Shown piece after piece: positions 629-58,165 of a stretch of 64,000 nt of DNA. Both the position numbers and the translations under genes were made by a program. The notes under the pieces are model-generated. The model saw nothing but the letters and a program-made list of their open reading frames with translations. It was not told the DNA's origin and made no database searches. Each line of letters opens with the position of its first letter. Position 1 is the first letter of the stretch. Source of the DNA: an uncultured Desulfovibrionaceae bacterium. GTDB taxonomy: Bacteria; Bacillota; Dethiobacteria; DTU022; UBA8154. The stretch spans positions 8,503 to 72,502 of the forward strand of contig CAZOOA010000003.1 in NCBI GenBank assembly GCA_964581355.1, written 5' to 3'.

Positions 629-802
629 GCAGGAATTTTGGGACAACTCAAAGAATTATAAAGTATGAAAATGGAGTTTTAAGTTTCCCGGTACGACTCC
701 GGTTATCTTCGCGGCAAAGCGTTAAGGCTCAGTTCAAGCTTCCGCGTTCATAAAATGTGCTATTCAATTAAAGGAGGTGGGCCTGTAATACAGGCCAATA
801 TT

Positions 803-2033: not shown

Positions 2034-2290
2034 CTTTTTGGTTCCTTTAAGCATTATTTATGGTCCACCCGTCCACACCCTGCTTCGGTTTTCTTTTCCC
2101 CGTTATATACCCATCCCTTCTCTTATTAACAAGACCTTCTCCAGCATCAAAGGTTAGTATGAAAATCAAACAATTCACTTGGTTTTTTTGTTGCTTTTTG
2201 CTCCCGGAAGAGGGTATAATCAAAAAAGCTTGTTTAGCAAAACTCCAGGACGGAAGCTTTGCTCTGATCAAACAGAAAGAGTTGCCTTGC

Positions 2291-8620: not shown

Positions 8621-9976
8621 TTGGCAGGGTTTTCCCGTAGATTCTGGTTGATGCTAATGATTGCAGCACTGGTGTTGGTTAATACTGGTGGGGGAGCTTG
8701 GGCTTCTTATCAGAAAAAATATCATGGTAACTCCATAGCTCCGGGCACGGAGGTTGCGGGAATTTCCCTGGGCGGGCTGGATAAGGAGGAAGCTCGTGCT
8801 GTCTTGGAACAAGAACTTGTCCTGCCTGATTCCATTTCTGTCCAGTGGGAAAGCAAAAGATTTTCCATTCCCCTAGATAAGGATGTGGCTTCTTTTGACC
8901 TTGACAAGGCCCTTGGTCAGGCACTGCAGGTAGGCCGTTCCGGGGAAAAAAGTGCCGGCTATGATTTAAACTTTATCAGGTGGTTCCCACAGGAAAAACA
9001 TTTGTTTGCCCCCATGGAGATAGCACCTTCTTATTTGGAACAACAGCTTGATGGGATTAAACAGGCTGTGGATAAGGAACCCGTGGATGCTGAGTTGACT
9101 ATCGAAAACTATCTCCCGGATATTAAGGAAGAAAAAAAGGGGGTTTTTCTTGATCGGCAGCAAAGCCAGGAGTCGATTCTAAAACATGTTAGGCAGGGGC
9201 AGTATCAGCAGATCCCCTTGATTGTTAAGAAAACAGCTCCCCAGGTTACTGAAGAAGACCTGCCGGACTTTAGTCAACGACTTGCCTACTACGAGACACC
9301 TCTTGATTTGGAGCAGGAAGATAGAGTGTACAATATTTCGCTGGCCAAAGAAGAAGTAAGCACACTGGTCCTTGAGCCTGGAGAAGTTTTTTCTTTTAAT
9401 GAGATCCTGGGGGAAGCGACGGCCGATAAAGGCTACCGGGAAGTGCTGGTTATTGAAAACCGGCAGTTTGTGCCCGGGGTTGGTGGGGGAATATGCCAAG
9501 TGGCTACAACGATTTACCAGGCTGCATTAAGGGCTGAATTGGAGATTGTTCAACGCAGCAACCACAGTCGGCCGGTGTCCTATGTTCCTTTGGGGTTTGA
9601 TGCAACCATTGCTTACAATAGACTGGACTTGCAGTTTTACAATAACCGAGACTTTCCTGTCATGATGGTAGGCCGGATCAATGAAAGTCTCCGCTTTGAT
9701 TTTTACGGGGCCGAGGCGGATCCTGACCGGGAGATTGAGATCATTGCTGAAAAAGAGGAGGTTTTAGAACCCCGGAGCCTGGAAAAAAAGACAACGAGCC
9801 TCCCTAGAGGAGAGCGAAAAGTTGTTCAGCAGGGCGAGGATGGGTACCGGGTGAATGTTTACCGGAGAATTTATGAAAAAGAAGAGAAAGTGGCACGGGA
9901 ACTGGTTTCTACAGATACATATATGCCGATCAACGAAATTGTTCACATTGGTATAATGGATGCCAGAAGAAAATGA
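8621..9976 (+). CDS. VanW-family exported protein with C-terminal G5 domain
   Basis: Signal/anchor, FSFNEILG, GVGGGICQVATTIYQAAL, RSNHSRPVSYVPLGFDATI (VanW); VVQQGEDG..V.R...SDTY (G5). Confidence 0.88.
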   Translation: MAGFSRRFWLMLMIAALVLVNTGGGAWASYQKKYHGNSIAPGTEVAGISLGGLDKEEARAVLEQELVLPDSISVQWESKRFSIPLDKDVASFDLDKALGQALQVGRSGEKSAGYDLNFIRWFPQEKHLFAPMEIAPSYLEQQLDGIKQAVDKEPVDAELTIENYLPDIKEEKKGVFLDRQQSQESILKHVRQGQYQQIPLIVKKTAPQVTEEDLPDFSQRLAYYETPLDLEQEDRVYNISLAKEEVSTLVLEPGEVFSFNEILGEATADKGYREVLVIENRQFVPGVGGGICQVATTIYQAALRAELEIVQRSNHSRPVSYVPLGFDATIAYNRLDLQFYNNRDFPVMMVGRINESLRFDFYGAEADPDREIEIIAEKEEVLEPRSLEKKTTSLPRGERKVVQQGEDGYRVNVYRRIYEKEEKVARELVSTDTYMPINEIVHIGIMDARRK

Positions 9977-10031
9977 ATTACCTTATTCGCAAAAGAGCTC
10001 GTTTTGTTTGAGCTTTAAGGGGGGGGTTGCT

Positions 10032-11825
10032 TTGTCGTCGTCAAGGAAGAACGGTCAAATTGGTATTGTTGAGGGAAAAATAAAAGTCGTGAACCCTGAA
10101 GGGGAAGGAAAGCCGGCTGTATTATACCCACCCGATGAGGGAGTTACTATTTTGATAAATGGTGAACTGGTTGAAGGTGCCGTGGAGGTCAGGGAAGAGG
10201 ACACAATCGAGGTAAACAAAACATCCCTTTTAGAAGAAGCCAGGATAGATGTCAAAGTTTCCTCCGATGGTCTCTCGGCTACAGCGGCGGTATTTCCTAG
10301 AATAACGGGAAAATATCATTTAAAAGATAAACCAATGTCGGCAAGCTTAAAACCAGAAATTGGAAAAGAAGAATTGTCCGAGCCGGTCCTCACTGTAATG
10401 GAGGCGGAAGCAGAATTAAAGCAAAAGAACGTGGTTGATGGGATCGATTATGTTGCCTTAAAAAATGCCCTGGAAAAGGCTGAAGGAGAGCATGTGGAAG
10501 TTGCCCGGGGAAAGCCCAAGGAAGAAGGGCAAAATGGTTATGTAGAATATTTAATTAATACAGAAGTTGAAGCGATCAACTACGAAGGAGAAGAAGAACG
10601 GGTTGATTTCAGGGAGCGTTATCGCTACCCCTCCGTTAATCAGGATGATGTAATCGCTGTGATTCACCCTCCGGTCAATGGTGTCCCCGGCCAGACAGTC
10701 ACAGGAAACGTGCTACCCCCCAAGCCAGTAAAACCAGCACGGGTTCGCGTGGGGGAAGGTGTTTATTATAACGAAGACGAAACTGAGGTTATTGCTGCCA
10801 GGGATGGACGTTTGTTTGTCAAAGGCAACAGCATCAAAGTTGCCAATCTGCTTGTGCACAATGGTGATGTGGACCTGGAAAGCGGAAACATCCGTTTTAA
10901 CGGGGACTTAACGATACATGGAAACATCATGGAAGGCATGGTGGTGGAAACTCAAGGTGATTTGCAGGTGGAGGGAAATGCTTACGGGGCGAGTATTGCA
11001 GCTGGTGGCAGTGTTTCTTTAAGCAAAAATGTGATTAAGTCGCAAGTTGAAGGTGGAACGTATTATGCATTTATTGACCAGGCATTCCCCATTTTAAGAA
11101 GAGTAGGGGAAGATTTTAGCAGTTTTTTGGTCAGCTTAAAAGAAGTGATTAAAGGTGTTGCTGGCAAAGGGCAAAAAATTGATCAAAACAAATTAAATAA
11201 AATTATCCATGCAGTTTTGGAAAAAAGCGCCCCGGATATTGGTGAGCAAGTAAAAAACCTGGAAAAAATGCTGGAGAATAAAGAAGACCCCCGCCTGGAT
11301 TCGCTTAAAAGCATTATCAGGCTTCTTTCAGCCATGATTGCGACGGATTTGTCCCTGAACGAATTTAAAGACCTGGAAAAGATAGATGCGTCAATTAAAT
11401 CTGCCCTGGACACTTTTGAAAAAACCCTGCAAGAAAAGCCTCACTTTCAGGCATCCTATGTGCAGAATAGCACGATTAACCACGGCGGTCATGTAACCTT
11501 AACAGGAACGGGGGGGTATTTTTCCACTATAAAAGCCGCCGGGGAAGTCAATGTAGAAGGGGCATTCCGTGGAGGCTCCATTGAGTCCGGGGGAAATGTT
11601 AAGGTAAAAGAATTTATCTGTATTACCACTGCGGCGGAGGCGGCAGAAAAACGGACCATTATCCGCATTAAGGTTCCCAGTCATGCCACCATTGCTTTTA
11701 ATATTGTTCATGAAGACACGACAATCCAGGTTGGAAAACTGGTTTATCGTTTTGATAAGGAGTTATCTAATGTTAAAGTTTCCTATGACCCGGATAGCGG
11801 CATGCTTAAAATTACGAACTTTTAG
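10032..11825 (+). CDS. FapA / DUF342 family protein, paralogue 1
   Basis: VARGKPKEEGQNG, DFRERYRYPSV, VHNGDVDLESGNIRFNGDLTIHGNI beta-helix motifs. Confidence 0.85.
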   Translation: MSSSRKNGQIGIVEGKIKVVNPEGEGKPAVLYPPDEGVTILINGELVEGAVEVREEDTIEVNKTSLLEEARIDVKVSSDGLSATAAVFPRITGKYHLKDKPMSASLKPEIGKEELSEPVLTVMEAEAELKQKNVVDGIDYVALKNALEKAEGEHVEVARGKPKEEGQNGYVEYLINTEVEAINYEGEEERVDFRERYRYPSVNQDDVIAVIHPPVNGVPGQTVTGNVLPPKPVKPARVRVGEGVYYNEDETEVIAARDGRLFVKGNSIKVANLLVHNGDVDLESGNIRFNGDLTIHGNIMEGMVVETQGDLQVEGNAYGASIAAGGSVSLSKNVIKSQVEGGTYYAFIDQAFPILRRVGEDFSSFLVSLKEVIKGVAGKGQKIDQNKLNKIIHAVLEKSAPDIGEQVKNLEKMLENKEDPRLDSLKSIIRLLSAMIATDLSLNEFKDLEKIDASIKSALDTFEKTLQEKPHFQASYVQNSTINHGGHVTLTGTGGYFSTIKAAGEVNVEGAFRGGSIESGGNVKVKEFICITTAAEAAEKRTIIRIKVPSHATIAFNIVHEDTTIQVGKLVYRFDKELSNVKVSYDPDSGMLKITNF

Positions 11826-13331: not shown

Positions 13332-13354
13332 TATTTCATAATTTAATATGTTCT

Positions 13355-13432
13355 TGAAAAAGGCAAACCTGCCGAAAGGCAGGGACGCAAAGCCATGGGT
13401 CTAAAGCGGTGCCAGGACTGCCAGGTTGCCAG
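13355..13432 (+). ncRNA. c-di-GMP-I (GEMM-I) riboswitch
   Basis: GGCAAACCTGCC-GAAA-GGCAGGGACGCAAAGCC...GGGTCTAA...GCCAGGTTGCC: GAAA tetraloop P2, GCAAA junction, GGTCTAA P3, GTTGCC closing P1. Confidence 0.92.
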
Positions 13433-13472
13433 GATGCATAATCCAACTGCTTTTTTTGCAAGCTGACTGATT

Positions 13473-13681: not shown

Positions 13682-15496
13682 ATGCGTGAAAAGTTCTCTG
13701 CTGAAACCCGTTCAGACCAGGATGGGTATATAGAAATTAAAGATGGCCACGTAACAGTCCATGAAGCGTCCGGGCAGGGCATTCCCGTGATTCTTCACCC
13801 TGATCCCGGGGCTGCTGTTCGAGTGAATGGCAAAGAGATTGATTCTCCCAGCACCCTTAAAGCTTCGGATGTAGTGGAAATTGAACCGCTGGAAGAGACC
13901 GTCTCAGGTTCAGTTGAGGCGAGAATTGCTCAAGATGGCATGAAAGCGGAAGTCAAAGTCAGTCCCGGCCTGCAGATTACAAGAAAGGTAGATGATTTAT
14001 CGGCCCAGGGCGAAGTCTATTTGAAGCTGGAAGAAAACCGCCAAAAATATCCCGATATTTCAGTTCAAGATGTCAATAATGCCCTGGCAGAACAGGGTGT
14101 GGTCTTTGGCCTTGATGCACCTGCCATAGAACAGGCTGTGAAAGAGGCAGCAGATGAGTGGGTGGTTGTAGCTCATGGAAAAGAGGCAGTGCCGGGAAAA
14201 GATGGTTACGTGGAACTCCATGTCGATGTGGAGCTTAAGTCGATAACCCATGATCAGGAAGCCCTGTCCCGGGTAGATTACAAGGAAAAAATAGAAATCC
14301 CTTCGGTCAGTGAAGGAGATCTGCTGGCCACAATCCATCCACCTGAACCTGGTAAACCTGGAAAACGGGTTACGGGGGAAGCGCTGGAACCACCTCCCGT
14401 GGAACCAGTCCAGGTGCAGTGCAAAGAAGGCTGTACACTAAGCCCCGAAGGAGACAAAGTATTAGCTCAAAAGGCCGGGCGACCTGTGGTTGAGGGCAAA
14501 AAGAATGAAAAGTTCACCATCGCTCCCCTATTCGTCCATAATGGTGATGTGGACATGGATAGTGGAAATATTCGTTTTTCCGGTGATGTTAAAATAGCAG
14601 GTGATGTGCATGAGGGCATGCTTATTGAAGGGGCGGGCAGTGTGGAAGTTATGGGCAGTACGGCAGGGGCGCGCGTGTTAGGCGGGCAAAACGTGGTTTT
14701 TCATAAAAACCTGATTAACACAAAGGTTGAGGCAGGGGCGCTGAAAGGGTTATATAAATCCTTACTGCCTCTTTTAAGTGAAGTTGAAGAAACATTATCG
14801 ACTCTGTATTATGGTGTGGAACAGCTGAAAGAAGTGATGACCAGCAGGGGCAAGTCTGTTGAAGAAAAGGAAACCGGCCGCCTGGCCAAACTAATCGCCG
14901 ATAAAAAGTTTGAGCAACTTCCTCAAACAGTGGAGGAAGTCAGCAGCCTCGTTAACCAAACGAATTTTGTGTTACCTCGAATACTAACAGATGCTATCAG
15001 CAGGTACGAAAACCTGTTTAAAGAAATGGGTTTCCTTGATATTCAAAGCAATGAAGAGTTGATGCAGTTGGTCGAAGAAGCTAAGGAAACCAGGGATTTT
15101 GTGGAGCGAACCATGGATGAACTGGTAGGGGATGTAATGGCCAGTTATGTACAGAACTGCACAGTGGTTTCCAGCGGCAATATTACTATAAACGGGCCAG
15201 GCACTTATAATTCTTACTTCTATGCTGGAGGGGATGTTCATATTGAGCGAATTTCCAGGGGTGGAGGGATTACGGCAGAAGGAAACCTCTTTATAGGAGA
15301 AGCGGGTTCGCCAGGCATGGCCATAAAACCGAGGAAAATTCAGCTTTCTTCCAGTTCTGTAGCCAAATTTCGCAAAGTATATGAAAATGTTATTGTTGTT
15401 TTTGGTAAACGGATCCACAAGTTTGAAGAAATGCAAACAAATGTGAAAGTATATTACTCTGCCGAAGATGACCGGATCATAATTATCAATTTATAG
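13682..15496 (+). CDS. FapA / DUF342 family protein, paralogue 2
   Basis: VAHGKEAVPGKDG, VDYKEKIEIPSV, VHNGDVDMDSGNIRFSGDV; collinear with paralogue 1. Confidence 0.87.
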   Translation: MREKFSAETRSDQDGYIEIKDGHVTVHEASGQGIPVILHPDPGAAVRVNGKEIDSPSTLKASDVVEIEPLEETVSGSVEARIAQDGMKAEVKVSPGLQITRKVDDLSAQGEVYLKLEENRQKYPDISVQDVNNALAEQGVVFGLDAPAIEQAVKEAADEWVVVAHGKEAVPGKDGYVELHVDVELKSITHDQEALSRVDYKEKIEIPSVSEGDLLATIHPPEPGKPGKRVTGEALEPPPVEPVQVQCKEGCTLSPEGDKVLAQKAGRPVVEGKKNEKFTIAPLFVHNGDVDMDSGNIRFSGDVKIAGDVHEGMLIEGAGSVEVMGSTAGARVLGGQNVVFHKNLINTKVEAGALKGLYKSLLPLLSEVEETLSTLYYGVEQLKEVMTSRGKSVEEKETGRLAKLIADKKFEQLPQTVEEVSSLVNQTNFVLPRILTDAISRYENLFKEMGFLDIQSNEELMQLVEEAKETRDFVERTMDELVGDVMASYVQNCTVVSSGNITINGPGTYNSYFYAGGDVHIERISRGGGITAEGNLFIGEAGSPGMAIKPRKIQLSSSSVAKFRKVYENVIVVFGKRIHKFEEMQTNVKVYYSAEDDRIIIINL

Positions 15497-16436: not shown

Positions 16437-16604
16437 ATGGAAGAAGTAAAAAAAGTGCTGCAGGATTCTGCCCCGGAAGGAAAGCTTCCCTGTATCATGG
16501 CTTTTAAAATAGCCCGGGAGCATAACGTCTCAGTTGCTGAAGTAGGGGACCTTTGTAACGAATTGAAAATAAAGATTGTCAACTGTCAGTTGGGTTGCTT
16601 TTAG
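16437..16604 (+). CDS. 55-aa Cys-rich small protein ending CQLGCF (not in ORF track)
   Basis: AAGGAGG RBS then MEEVKKVLQDSAPEGKLPCIMAFKIAREHNVSVAEVGDLCNELKIKIVNCQLGCF*; four Cys. Confidence 0.8.
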   Translation: MEEVKKVLQDSAPEGKLPCIMAFKIAREHNVSVAEVGDLCNELKIKIVNCQLGCF

Positions 16605-16923
16605 TATGATAAACCGTGTCTTGGCGCTGTCGTCCGGACGACTGGGTAACTCTGTGGAAGGCGCTAAGGTTCCCTCGGGGTCCTCGGGCGGCCTTCCCGG
16701 TTTAACTCCCGTCCAGGTCGATCCCGGCGGCCGACGTCCTGTCGGCCGGACCGCCCGAGGACCTTCGGTCACCAAACGCCTTTGGCCACAGAGACCAACG
16801 TCGCCGGACGAATGCGCCATCTCCCCGGTTAGGGGAGCGGAGTGTTGAAAACCAGATCTTCGATCATAAGCAAGGTTTTTCATCCCCTGTTGTGGCCCGC
16901 GAGGGCCGTGGCGGTTAGTATGA
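16601..16923 (-). mobile_element. Non-coding hairpin-rich element, family 1 copy A
   Basis: TTAGTATGA direct repeat at 16601 and 16915; inverted repeat ATGATAAACC (16606-16615) / GGTTTTTCAT (16874-16883); conserved end shared with 25304-25352 and 58082-58131. Confidence 0.7.
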
Positions 16924-16984
16924 AAAACCGTGTATTGGCGCTGTCGTCCGGGCGACTGGGTAACTCTGTGGAAGGCGCTAGGGT
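16915..16984. repeat. 70-bp direct repeat of 16601-16670 (partial head-to-tail second unit)
   Basis: 66 of 70 positions identical, period 314 bp. Confidence 0.95.
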
Positions 16985-25303: not shown

Positions 25304-25713
25304 ATACTAACCGCCACGGCCCTTGCGGGCCATGGGCAGGGGACGAAAATGGTTTTCAAAACCGTTTCCCGCCTGGATGAGGTCCGCTTTCCCTGTATCG
25401 GCGACTTTGTCAAGCGGCTAAATAGAAATGAAGCTACCTTTTACGGTATACTCTGGTTGCACGCTCGCCACACCAGGGCAGCGCGGCGGTTGCCGGACCC
25501 GCCCGGTGCATGTGCAGTGAAGATGCAAGTTACTGCGAAACGAGGGCCGGGAGGGGACCCGGCCGGCATGGATGCCGGCCGCCTGGCAGCCGAAGCATGG
25601 AGGCTGAGTCTGCAGGTTGGTCCCCGGAGGGCCAAGTAGAGCAGCTTAACTTGCCTGAAGCGAACCTAAACCGGCGGTTCCGGCATTCGCCAACGCTGCC
25701 ATTTTCATACTAA
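25304..25713 (+). mobile_element. Non-coding hairpin-rich element, family 1 copy B, inside the pur operon
   Basis: ATACTAA at 25304-25310 and 25707-25713; CGAAAATGG (25344-25352) / CCATTTTCAT (25699-25708) inverted pair; 28 of first 29 bp identical to the reverse complement of copy A's end. Confidence 0.7.
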
Positions 25714-55181: not shown

Positions 55182-56321
55182 ATGGATTTTACTTTTTCCG
55201 AAGAGCAAAAGATGATGAAAAAGCTATTCCGTGAGTTTGCTGAGAAAGAAATTGCACCCCGCGCCGACCATATCGATAAAACAGGCGAGTTTCCCCGGGA
55301 AAACCTCCAAAGCCTGGGCCGGGAAGGACATATGGGCATCCCTATTCCCGAAGAATGGGGGGGGGCTGGAGCCGATTTTCTGACTTATATGTTCTGCCTG
55401 GAGGAAGTGTCCAGGGCTTGTGCATCTACGGGGGTTATCCTTGCTGTTCATACCTCCTTGGGTATTTACTCCATTTTATATCACGGAACCGAGGAGCAAA
55501 AAAAGAAATTCGTAACCCCCCTGGCCCAGGGAGACATGCTTGGCGCCTTTGCTTTAAGCGAACCCGAGGCTGGCTCCGATGCTGCTGCCTTAAAAACCAG
55601 GGCCCGCAAAGATGGGAATCATTATGTTCTGAATGGTAATAAAGTTTGGATTACCAGCGCTGGTGAAGCAGATGTTTACGTTGTCTTTGCCACCATGGAC
55701 CCCGAAAAGAAAACCCGGGGAATTACAGCCTTCCTGGTAGAAAAAGACACCCCGGGATTACTCATTGGACCCAAAGAGAAGAAAATGGGCTTGAATGGTT
55801 CGGCCACCTGCGAACTGATTTTTGATGACTGCCGTGTCCCTGCAGAAAACCTACTTGGAGAAGAAGGCGGTGGCTTCAAAATTGCCATGTCCCTGTTGGA
55901 TGGTGGACGCATCGGTATTGCCGCCCAGGGCCTGGGCATCGCCCAGGCTGCTTTTGATCAAGCTCTGCAGTATTCCAAAACCAGGGAACAGTTTGGCCGG
56001 CCCATTGGTGACTTCCAGGCTATCCAGTTTAAGCTGGCCGACATGGCCACAGAGCTGGATGCAGCCCGTCTTATGGTGTACCGGGCAGCGTTTCACAAAG
56101 ACAACGACCTGCCCTGTACCCGTGAAGCTTCCATGGCCAAGGTTTTTGCTACTGATTTGGCCATGAAAGCAGGAATTGAGGCCGTCCAGATTTTCGGCGG
56201 ATACGGATACAGCAGGGAATATCCGGTAGAGCGCTATATGAGAGATGCAAAAGTTACCCAAATCTACGAAGGCACAAACCAAATTCAAAGAATTGTTATT
56301 TCCAGGGAGTATTTAAAATAA
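55182..56321 (+). CDS. Short/branched-chain acyl-CoA dehydrogenase
   Basis: [30 protein letters not shown]. Confidence 0.93.
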
Positions 56322-56386: not shown

Positions 56387-57526
56387 ATGAATTTTACGAT
56401 GTCGCCTGAACACGAAATGATGCGCAAGTCTATTCGAGATTTTGCCGAGAACGAAATTGCACCCGGAGCCGCAGAAAGAGACGAAAAAGAAGAATTCTCG
56501 CGGGAAATCTTCGAAAAAATGGCTGAAATGGAATTGACCGGTATACCGTGGCCAGAAGAGTACGGAGGAGCTGGCGACGATTATTTAAGCTACGCTATTG
56601 CAGTCGAGGAGATATCCCGGGTGGATGCATCGGCTGGAGTTACCCTTTCAGCCCATACTTCTTTGTGCTGCTGGCCCATTTACACATACGCTAACGAAGA
56701 ACAATTAAAGAAGTATTTGACACCCCTGGCCAAGGGGGAAAAGCTGGGCGGATACGGCTTGACAGAGCCACAAGCAGGTTCTGATGCAGGCAGTTTGCAG
56801 ACTACAGCTGTTCTTGACGGGGACCATTATATCTTAAATGGTAACAAGATTTGGATTACAAACGCTGATGATGCCGAGATTTACGTGGTGTTTGCTTCAA
56901 CAGACAAGAGCAAGAAGGCTAAAGGGATTAGTGCTTTTATCGTTGAGAAAGGCACCCCTGGCTTTTCCTTTGGTACTAAGGAAAAGAAACTGGGGATCCG
57001 CTCTTCGTCGACCAATGAGCTAATTTTCGACGACTGTAAGGTGCCCAAGGAAAACCTGTTAGGCAAAGAAGGCGAAGGGTTTAAAATTGCTATGACAACA
57101 TTGGATGGCGGACGTAATGGCATTGCCGCCCAGGCACTGGGCATTGCCCAGGGTGCATTGGATGCAGCAGCAGATTATGCTAAAACCCGGGAGCAATTTG
57201 GCCGACCCATAGCCGATTTTCAAGCCGTTTCTTTTATGATTGCCGATATGGCTACCAAGATTGAAGCAGCCCGCCTCTTAACCTACCAGGCCGCTTTCCT
57301 GGAAAGCCAGGGCCTGCCTTATGCCAAGGAATCTGCCATGTCCAAGCTTTATGCCTCTGATGTGGCTATGGAAACAACAGTAAATGCTGTCCAAATATTT
57401 GGTGGATATGGTTACAGCCGGGAATACCCGGTAGAACGCTTTATGAGAGATGCGAAGATCACCCAAATTTATGAAGGAACCAACGAAATTCAAAGGTTGG
57501 TTGTAAGCCGTTACTTGCTGAAGTAA
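56387..57526 (+). CDS. Butyryl-CoA dehydrogenase-like acyl-CoA dehydrogenase
   Basis: [30 protein letters not shown]. Confidence 0.93.
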
Positions 57527-57551: not shown

Positions 57552-58088
57552 TTGAAGAGGTTGTCGGAAACAAACAAAGGATTGGTGCTGGTCTACACTG
57601 GAGATGGAAAAGGAAAAACTACGGCGGCCCTGGGGCTAGCTTTCAGGGCCGCCGGGCACGGCTTTAAAATACTTGCGATTCACTTTTTAAAAGGAAGAGA
57701 CTATGGAGAGGCCAAAGCTGCTGAACACCTGCCTAATTTTGAAACCGTTAAGGCGGGTAGAGACAAATTTGTAAACCGGGATAACCCTGATCCTGAAGAT
57801 GTCAAGCTGGCAGCAGAAGGCATGGCCAGAGCCAGGGAATCGGCAGCAAAGGGAACACACAACCTCATTCTGCTCGATGAGATTAATGTCGCTTTGAACT
57901 ACAACCTGGTCTCCCTGCAAGAAGTTTTGGAGTTAATCGATACTCGTGCTCCCGGCGTTGATCTGGTTTTAACCGGGAGAAATGCTCCTCCGGAGATACT
58001 GGAAAAGGCTGATATGGTTAGTGAGGTCAAGGACATCAAGCACCACTTTGCTTCGGGGACCAAAGCGCGCGAGGGCATTGAATACTAA
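57552..58088 (+). CDS. cobO: Cob(I)alamin adenosyltransferase (CobO/BtuR type)
   Basis: YTGDGKGKTTAA, LDE, LTGR, GIEY C-terminus. Confidence 0.92.
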   Translation: MKRLSETNKGLVLVYTGDGKGKTTAALGLAFRAAGHGFKILAIHFLKGRDYGEAKAAEHLPNFETVKAGRDKFVNRDNPDPEDVKLAAEGMARARESAAKGTHNLILLDEINVALNYNLVSLQEVLELIDTRAPGVDLVLTGRNAPPEILEKADMVSEVKDIKHHFASGTKAREGIEY

Positions 58089-58165
58089 CCGACACAGCCC
58101 ATTCAGCAACAACAGGGGATGAAAAACCTTGTTTGCGTCCGAGGTGCTGGTTTTTCTTGAACTAA
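58082..58165 (+). mobile_element. Short or decayed family 1 element, copy C
   Basis: ATACTAACCG start; 23 bp (58109-58131) identical to the reverse complement of 16871-16893; GAAAAACC/GGTTTTTC inverted pair; ACTAA at 58161-58165. Confidence 0.6.

Follow-up and report, generated by a model that had tools for sequence, protein, structure and literature searches.

A dispersed family of small folded intergenic elements in a soda-lake Bacillota lineage, close in anatomy to single-strand transposons

Transposons of the IS91/IS801 group have two unlike ends and do not duplicate their target; a G+C-rich palindrome lies beside the ter cleavage site, and one tetranucleotide marks both the ter end and the target that adjoins the ori end (PMC13181058, PMC3189936). 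The functional circle is single-stranded and formed from one strand only, one-ended events are frequent, leaving fragments in which the ori end is always retained, and complete copies occur with DNA from beyond the ter end, owing to read-through (PMC13181058, PMC3189936). Minimal elements of the IS91 family, comprising the ends only, are mobilised in trans (PMC13181058, PMC3189936). A PATE in a haloalkaliphilic Bacillota species combines a left end with a 28-nt hairpin and a right end of 160 nt, the two hairpins being different (PMC7290912).

Here a family of elements of about 80 to 410 bp is described, which are non-coding, rich in hairpins and located beside the motif ATACTAA in the genome of an uncultured bacterium. 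Small, structured and modular intergenic repeats that lie in operons are also represented by the pneumococcal BOX, the bcr1 of Bacillus cereus and the mycobacterial MIRU, some of which overlap stop or start codons; bcr1 has inverted repeats with duplications, and MIRU are simple tandem units. To our knowledge none of these three is related in sequence to the present elements, and none has an end composed of a hairpin plus ATACTAA. The closest anatomy appears to be that of the IS91-type rolling-circle elements, with derivatives of IS200/IS605 in second place. As in IS91, IS801 and IS1294 (HUH Y2) and, by analogy, in non-autonomous Helitrons, the ends are unlike, inverted repeats and target duplications are absent, a G+C-rich imperfect palindrome is present at one end only, and the same short motif occurs at that end and at the target. 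The strand-specific fold, the fragments that keep the same end and the carry-over of DNA beyond the hairpin end would also find their counterparts in the IS91 family.

Copies in the window and their gene setting

The window, i.e., the whole stretch of 64,000 nt that was analysed, contains four copies, A to D, with two in each orientation and no strict strand bias. All four are intergenic, located between housekeeping genes on the plus strand, as assigned with Pfam. Three of the four loci had been recognised in the initial annotation and are retained; the fourth, copy D, had been missed and was found with covariance model R1 (674-771 on the minus strand, 26.6 bits, E about 9e-5). A sequence identical to the window is contained in the metagenome-assembled genome (MAG) GCA_003555305.1, and the nearest named relatives of its PurB are from Dethiobacter, Candidatus Contubernalis and Syntrophomonadaceae. 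The features are as follows, in window coordinates:

661..745, minus strand: copy D, B2-type, right end only; between argH and usp
2151..2165, minus strand: TTTTCATACTAACC, no element attached
16601..16914, minus strand: copy A, full-length A-type; between a conserved 55-aa ORF and moeA
16601-16607, plus (folding) strand: TTAGTAT of copy A
16606-16615, plus strand: 5' half of the end-to-end stem of copy A, ATGATAAACC
about 16617-16818, plus strand: long hairpin of copy A
16822-16838 and 16848-16883, plus strand: small hairpins of copy A
16874-16883, plus strand: 3' half of the stem of copy A, GGTTTTTCAT
16887-16914, plus strand: 12-bp terminal hairpin of copy A, loop GCGA
16915..16984, minus strand: right-end fragment RE', a copy of 16601-16670
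25304..25713, plus strand: copy B, full-length B1-type; between purE and purB
25304-25310 and 25707-25713, plus strand: ATACTAA of copy B
25311-25339, plus strand: hairpin module of copy B
25343-25352 and 25699-25708, plus strand: stem halves of copy B, ACGAAAATGG and CCATTTTCAT
25379-25414, plus strand: 36-nt block of copy B, invariant in the aligned B1 and B2 copies
25525-25697, plus strand: long hairpin of copy B
58082..58165, plus strand: copy C, degenerate minimal or deleted A-type; between btuR and meaB
58082-58088: ATACTAA of copy C, its TAA serving as native stop codon for the BtuR gene
58089-58116, plus strand: decayed hairpin of copy C
58119-58128 and 58149-58156: small hairpin of copy C, ATGAAAAACC paired with GGTTTTTC
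58161-58165, plus strand: ACTAA of copy C

Copy A had been taken to end at 16923, a boundary that is revised here, as its last 77 nt recur as a direct repeat (16594-16670 versus 16908-16984, 91% identity); a right-end fragment, RE', thus lies directly before the conserved end of A. On the plus strand RE' starts with TTAGTATGAAAAACC, which pairs at 10 of 10 positions with 16874-16883. The possibility that 16915-16984 is an ancestral moeA leader was rejected, since the syntenic relative has an unrelated region of 203 nt at this place. Copy B carries a B1-specific insertion of about 105 nt. Copy C is supported by a sequence match of 30.8 bits, and the BtuR encoded next to it matches the full Pfam profile; its shared end is upheld, while the ACTAA with which it was proposed to close argues only weakly for a true right end. 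Copy D reads GCGGAAGCTTGAACTGAG...CTCCATTTTCATACTT on the minus strand, and TTTTCATACTTT is present. The solitary TTTTCATACTAACC at 2151-2165, which is the exact junction sequence of the family, is intergenic and located upstream of a HepT-like gene (2060-2809), and may represent an unoccupied target-like site.

A Pfam scan of 27 ORFs of the window yielded neither a transposase nor a recombinase, in agreement with the initial annotation, which had noted that the window lacks a transposase. No HUH or other transposase gene, including one of the Y2 HUH type, was seen among the ORFs of the window or in the flanks of the copies; tnpA, tnpB, RAYT, DEDD and integrase genes were likewise not seen in the window or at the loci of the copies. 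No intI/attI platform accompanies the elements, the window has no integrase, and no long autonomous copy was found among the window and metagenome copies.

A number of other features of the window were observed. The 55-aa ORF upstream of moeA (16437-16604, plus strand) has no Pfam family, but its length and position are kept in a relative with a PurB identity of about 80% (contig L128, 1116-1283). A c-di-GMP-I-GGC riboswitch (RF03167, 76.5 bits) at 13353-13434 on the plus strand precedes a FapA-like gene (13682-15496), which has a repeat of 53 nt in common with a FapA-like paralogue at 9960-11825. A direct repeat of 300 nt with 69% identity (55799-56098 and 57004-57303) is found within two adjacent ORFs of 379 aa, which, judging by their N-terminal sequences, we take to be paralogous acyl-CoA dehydrogenase genes; it is unrelated to the hairpin elements.

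Ends, hairpin and folded body

Each complete copy has two unlike ends. The hairpin end consists of a conserved G+C-rich hairpin region of about 45 nt adjoining the junction motif ATACT(AA), while the other, right end comprises just about 12 conserved bases, ..TTTTCATACT. No inverted repeat is formed by the termini, CCGCCACGG... and ...CCATTTTC, and a classical MITE mobilised by a DDE enzyme was rejected on this ground. The only motif common to both junctions is ATACT(WW): on the hairpin side ATACT is almost always followed by AA, and on the right side by AA, AT or TT and then an A/T-rich flank. ATACTAA occurs eight times in the window, five times at element borders. The composite pattern CCGCCACGGCCC-N4-GGGCCA is present exactly twice in the window (16893-16914 on the minus strand and 25311-25332 on the plus strand), whereas 0.06 occurrences are expected by chance. 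The shared end module holds on reading, including the previously reported matches of 28 of 29 positions between A and B and of 23 bp between A and C; the common stretches extend over 34 nt (91%) for A and B and over 49 nt (82%) for A and C.

A 12-bp hairpin is located 3 nt from ATACTAA. Among nine distinct variants, 89.8% of the cells pair on one strand and 57.4% on the other, a difference that arises from five conserved G-U/G-T positions. The subterminal hairpin of the initial annotation is upheld, with good folding confined to the reverse of the strand in which that annotation was written. On the folding strand the loops are often GCGA or GCAA. There is one conserved hairpin per element, and no conserved hairpin is common to both ends. 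The five G-T pairs in the 12-bp stem suggest that the stem is better suited to RNA than to DNA.

The orientation of this hairpin bears directly on a possible origin from IS200/IS605-type elements. Such PATE-like derivatives would be moved by a Y1 TnpA, which cuts and pastes single strands and would insert them 3' of ATACTAA, and the body would be an omega RNA scaffold left from a lost tnpB or iscB. However, on the strand that is expected to be active the hairpin by the target pairs in 57% of the cells, compared to 90% on the other strand, and the two ends have no common conserved hairpin. The absence of inverted repeats and target duplications fits this scheme, as does the presence of the motif 5' of the hairpin end and again at the other end; tandem insertion is even expected, given that the target motif forms the tip of the right end. 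A PATE with unlike left and right hairpins occurs in haloalkaliphilic Bacillota (PMC7290912), and the G-U pairs, the GCGA/GCAA loops and the compensatory pairs would suit a guide-RNA scaffold. Nevertheless, right-end-only fragments and partial-then-full units are not expected from a peel-and-paste mechanism, the transposon-associated RNA families of Rfam are unmatched even at E values of 0.5 to 10, and tnpA and tnpB were not seen at the examined loci. Taken together, a derivation from IS200/IS605 is unlikely.

The elements share with PATEs and REP/REPIN-RAYT systems their non-coding, intergenic and hairpin-bearing nature, the absence of inverted repeats and target duplications, a short specific target motif and a presumed HUH Y1 enzyme acting in trans. 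Unlike PATEs they have a single conserved hairpin, and its folding strand is the reverse of the expected one. Unlike REPs they are far longer, form head-to-tail units, lack a 5' GTAG-type signature and have no visible TnpA/RAYT gene; an assignment to REP/REPIN-RAYT was rejected because the units, at 150-410 nt, greatly exceed palindromes of 20-40 nt and are arrayed directly instead of in inverted pairs.

The two ends of each full copy are joined by a 10-bp stem, formed on the folding strand by ATGAAAATGG and CCATTTTCAT. The closing inverted repeats that had been noticed in the initial annotation are thus real, and they covary: 98.3% of the cells are paired, and five of the ten pairs show a compensatory change, including ACC/GGT in A against TGG/CCA in B and two double changes in the copy on contig L132. 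None of 500 shuffles matches the observed score, and four wobble cells are valid on the reverse, folding strand only. The strand-specific pairing and the covarying stem together indicate that, as far as can be judged from the sequences, the elements are selected to fold as a single strand, either DNA or RNA, in which the ends meet beside the hairpin. In the long body both strands fold about equally well. Selection is not the only source of compensatory changes in long quasi-palindromes, since template switching can generate them too.

The interiors had been considered unrelated and interchangeable, a view that is contradicted by the covariance analysis. A model built from B interiors only detects the interior of A (16617-16784, 37.2 bits, E about 2e-7) as well as an A-type copy on contig L123 (24 bits). 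B1 and B2 align over their whole length, with about 105 extra nt in B1, and their invariant 36-nt block reads GAGGTCCGC...GTCAAG. In the long hairpin 38 consensus pairs are found over eight B copies, 13 of which show compensatory changes, and in a plain alignment A and B2 are 59% identical over 294 columns. The detection of A by the B-only model and the alignment of B1 with B2 argue against interchangeable cargo; by sequence and predicted fold, one folded body of about 300 nt has diverged into A, B1 and B2, with deletions and one insertion of 105 nt. The loop of the small hairpin of A (CCCC-TAACC-GGGG, about 16826-16834) repeats the junction bases (C)TAACCG, as does the segment GATAACCGG at the right end of B2 on contigs L120 and L123; by count this is at chance level, yet it recurs across subtypes.

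A structured RNA family that acts as RNA, e.g., as a 3'-UTR stabiliser, a processing element or a small RNA, and that has been spread by RNA copying in a SINE-like manner or by another, unknown route, would account for the strand-specific G-U pairs, the GNRA-type loops, the position in 3' UTRs and the body, in which 12-14 pairs show compensatory change. The interiors of A and B, which are the G+C maxima of the window (69-71% compared to 48% overall), would also be explained, and a group II intron on contig L118 would supply a reverse transcriptase. The folding strand runs with a neighbouring gene at 10 of 13 loci, but this is a weak trend that is not significant (two-sided p about 0.09, our estimate), and three of the 13 copies run antisense to the genes on either side. 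At four loci (A, L118, L123 and L129) the TAG stop codon of the co-oriented upstream gene is the TAG of the element sequence TAGTATG, a point that suits an RNA function and that is expected if only insertions at gene ends survive. Scans of the elements for promoters and terminators gave no conserved signal, many copies are broken, and in the fragments it is the 5' end of the folding strand that stays fixed, where target-primed reverse transcription would give the opposite. Such an RNA family is improbable as an explanation of the elements.

Dispersal, arrays and absence from relatives

A metagenome scan with a 22-base pattern identified eight loci, seven of which come from one sample and the eighth from a contig named as if derived from soda-lake sediment; pseudo-ORF searches added four more loci. 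In total about 14 additional copies or fragments were found at about nine further sites, in soda-lake and related metagenome contigs and MAGs; L130 belongs to GCA_007120815.1, and most of the others to the Ga0207421 population. The check for further copies suggested in the initial annotation thus has a positive outcome, at unrelated loci, between which the hairpin end is identical. An ORF running through B matched just five of 1.84 billion representative proteins, which indicates a narrow family. A concatenated six-frame pseudo-protein query of 1814 residues gave no matches, while single pseudo-ORF queries did. In a genome collection an 18-base pattern of the G+C-rich hairpin gave chance matches in high-G+C genomes, and TAACCGCCACGGCCC was in none of the at least 114 loci listed. 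No match was obtained in collections of plasmids, phages and viral contigs.

Long ORFs running through the elements were rejected as coding, because the variable sites of B2 are distributed as 21/22/22 over the codon positions, without three-base periodicity. The B2 copies measure 308, 318, 318 and 353 nt, and their indels are not multiples of three; this agrees with the earlier observation that no convincing ORF is present. A comparison with the Rfam covariance models, which the initial annotation had proposed, gave no match for any element, either at the gathering threshold or at permissive E values of 0.5 to 10. A retron-like reading, suggested by the closing stem, the stem-loops and the long hairpin, was rejected since there is no adjacent reverse transcriptase gene and the elements are multi-copy and arrayed.

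Three subtypes are distinguished, A, B1 and B2. A short A on contig L121 lacks the long hairpin through an internal deletion between two CGTCCGGxCGAC repeats. The elements form head-to-tail arrays in which subtypes are mixed, with the order B2, short-A, B2 on L121 and A followed by B2 on L123, and units within arrays are always in direct orientation. Five right-end-only fragments are known (copy D, window 16915-16984, and one each on L118, L125 and L129), three of which directly precede a full unit; on L118 the rare variant TTTCCAT is common to the fragment and the adjoining full copy. The converse case, in which only the hairpin end is left, is less frequent (C, L119 and L130). A mini-element on L132 combines about 10 nt from the hairpin end with 55 nt from the right end. 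At their inner borders the fragments lack an end-like motif, except on L129, where the border follows an internal CCTAA, so that plain deletion could explain the fragments. Several contigs from independent assemblies end inside elements (L115 at 1, L116 at 1, L121 at 10891 and L123 at 1), as is expected for repeats; the family thus appears to be a cause of contig breaks in MAGs of the lineage. Domains V-VI of a group II intron (RF00029, 42.7 bits, above the gathering score) are located at the contig end of L118 (3517-3590, minus strand), which also carries a B1 element; from this match the population probably holds a source of reverse transcriptase.

The mixed tandem arrays resemble accretion at att sites or cassette arrays, and the identical core of 5-7 bp at both junctions resembles attL/attR. 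This raises the possibility of small circles that are integrated by a site-specific recombinase (an IS110/IS1111 enzyme using a bridge RNA, or else a tyrosine-type or integron-like one), which would recombine the joined ends of the element with an ATACTAA core in the chromosome. The junction of two units, which folds into a stem, an internal loop and a stem with the core at the loop border, also fits such a scheme. The core, however, lacks inverted binding arms, and the target has just about 7-9 informative positions. Interior loops match the junction by one 7-mer per element where about 0.7 are expected; these matches to the junction, 6-7-mers at chance level, give no support to a bridge RNA. 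Furthermore, integrase and DEDD genes were not seen in the window or at the loci of the copies, and the excess of right-end-only over left-end-only fragments would be left unexplained. We regard integration by a recombinase as having a slender chance, and by anatomical analogy an HUH single-strand nuclease appears to be a better fit than an enzyme of the IS110/IS1111 type; the initial annotation had named both.

As in integron attC cassettes, an imperfect hairpin stands between the units and folds on one strand, and the crossover core, GTTAGTA (cf. GTTRRRY), lies at the hairpin border. In contrast to attC sites, the site sequence itself is conserved and the core is not paired with an inverse core; in contrast to integron cassettes, the units are without ORFs, copies are scattered over the chromosome, and there is no intI/attI. 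An assignment as integron cassette or attC site was rejected, because it is TTTTCAT and ATGAAAA, and not the core, that pair across the hairpin, and there is no integrase in the window.

The orthologous loci, the comparison of which had been proposed earlier, lack the elements at sites A and B. The purE-purB gap measures 426 nt in the window compared to 115 and 60 nt in two syntenic relatives (78-80% PurB identity), and upstream of moeA one relative has 203 unrelated nt compared to 420 nt in the window; no copies were found in about 25 kb of the two syntenic relatives. It is thus well supported by sequence comparison that the elements at sites A and B are insertions, although the flanks have diverged too far for an exact empty site and the insertions are not proven to the base. 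The region of 203 nt between the 55-aa ORF and moeA of the relative (L128, 1284-1486) is G+C-rich and different; its Rfam match is unconvincing (int-alpA, 19 bits, E 0.11), and the region may represent a leader RNA of unrelated origin.

On L124 copy A is present at its site, and at site C the sole other contig found, L133, has the same gap of 104 nt as the window. These shared sites, the many copies that are decayed fragments, and the fact that near-identical strains showed no site in both the filled and the empty state would be accounted for by old, now immobile REP-like repeats that were spread by duplication and recombination, the targeting being only apparent and due to selection for intergenic AT-rich sites. 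Yet the hairpin end is identical across unrelated loci and the junction motif is precise, subtypes are mixed in arrays, assemblies break inside elements and the relatives are without elements, which makes immobile repeats very improbable.

A proposed single-strand route of movement and its implications

The initial proposal of a non-autonomous family that targets (A)TACTAA stands in so far as the elements are dispersed, non-coding, non-autonomous and absent from relatives; the proposed variety of cargo does not. The elements are probably non-autonomous mobile elements that move via a single-stranded intermediate. In a more specific, IS91-like version, held tentatively and at somewhat less than even confidence, they would constitute one family that is transferred as single-stranded DNA by an HUH nuclease acting in trans. 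The transferred strand would be the folding strand, opposite to the one of the initial annotation, and cutting and joining would be carried out by an HUH-type nuclease encoded elsewhere in the genome. Transfer would begin at the short ..TTTTCATACT end, comparable to oriIS, and would end at the hairpin end, comparable to terIS, after which the element would be joined beside an ATACT motif without duplication of the target. A circle of one strand only, reading TAGTATGAAAA...hairpin, is predicted by this model. Since each inserted copy has the motif at its own border, new copies would land beside old ones and generate head-to-tail arrays. Transfer that ends early would leave right-end-only fragments, and reading on beyond the hairpin into the next unit of an array would place a partial unit ahead of a full one.

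The points that speak for the IS91-like model are the unlike ends without inverted repeats, the folding strand, the arrays, the types of fragments and the absence from relatives. Against it, no enzyme or autonomous copy was found in the window and the flanks of the copies, and the shared motif comprises 5-7 nt, compared to the 4-nt targets of the IS91 family. In addition, fragments can be explained by deletion, the mini-element on L132 keeping both tips and short-A being an internal deletion, fragments with only the hairpin end do exist, and the hairpin, being rich in wobble pairs, would be better suited to RNA. The elements further differ from the IS91 family in being small (150-410 bp) and lacking a transposase gene, in their covarying 10-bp end-joining stem and the conserved fold of the whole body, and in their host, an uncultured soda-lake Bacillota bacterium in which no Y2 gene is linked to the elements. 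The family matches nothing described, and is best filed among the HUH-type non-autonomous elements. Resemblances of the element sequence to what we take to be the att core of phage lambda, GCTTTTTTATACTAA, the Rep nick site of circular single-stranded DNA viruses, TAGTATTAC, and the nick site of pMV158, TACTACGAC, are presumably of use as leads only.

It is possible, though rather unlikely, that the elements form a Helitron-like bacterial family of non-autonomous rolling-circle elements, in which the body is folded such that the ends meet at the terminator hairpin and insertion is self-adjacent, or, if the strand is RNA, a SINE-like retroelement. In the host, G+C-rich hairpins of 200 nt inside operons (purE-purB, upstream of moeA, and btuR-meaB) may alter transcription or mRNA stability. 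If the proposed mobility is true, the elements would represent an undescribed lineage of passenger mobile DNA in poorly known soda-lake anaerobes, with an unusual design of one hairpin, one short motif and a covarying stem tying the ends together. They would explain assembly breaks in intergenic regions of these genomes and would offer a natural test of target choice and array building by single-strand transposons, while the 45-nt end together with the ATACT motif would provide a handle for finding the driver enzyme.
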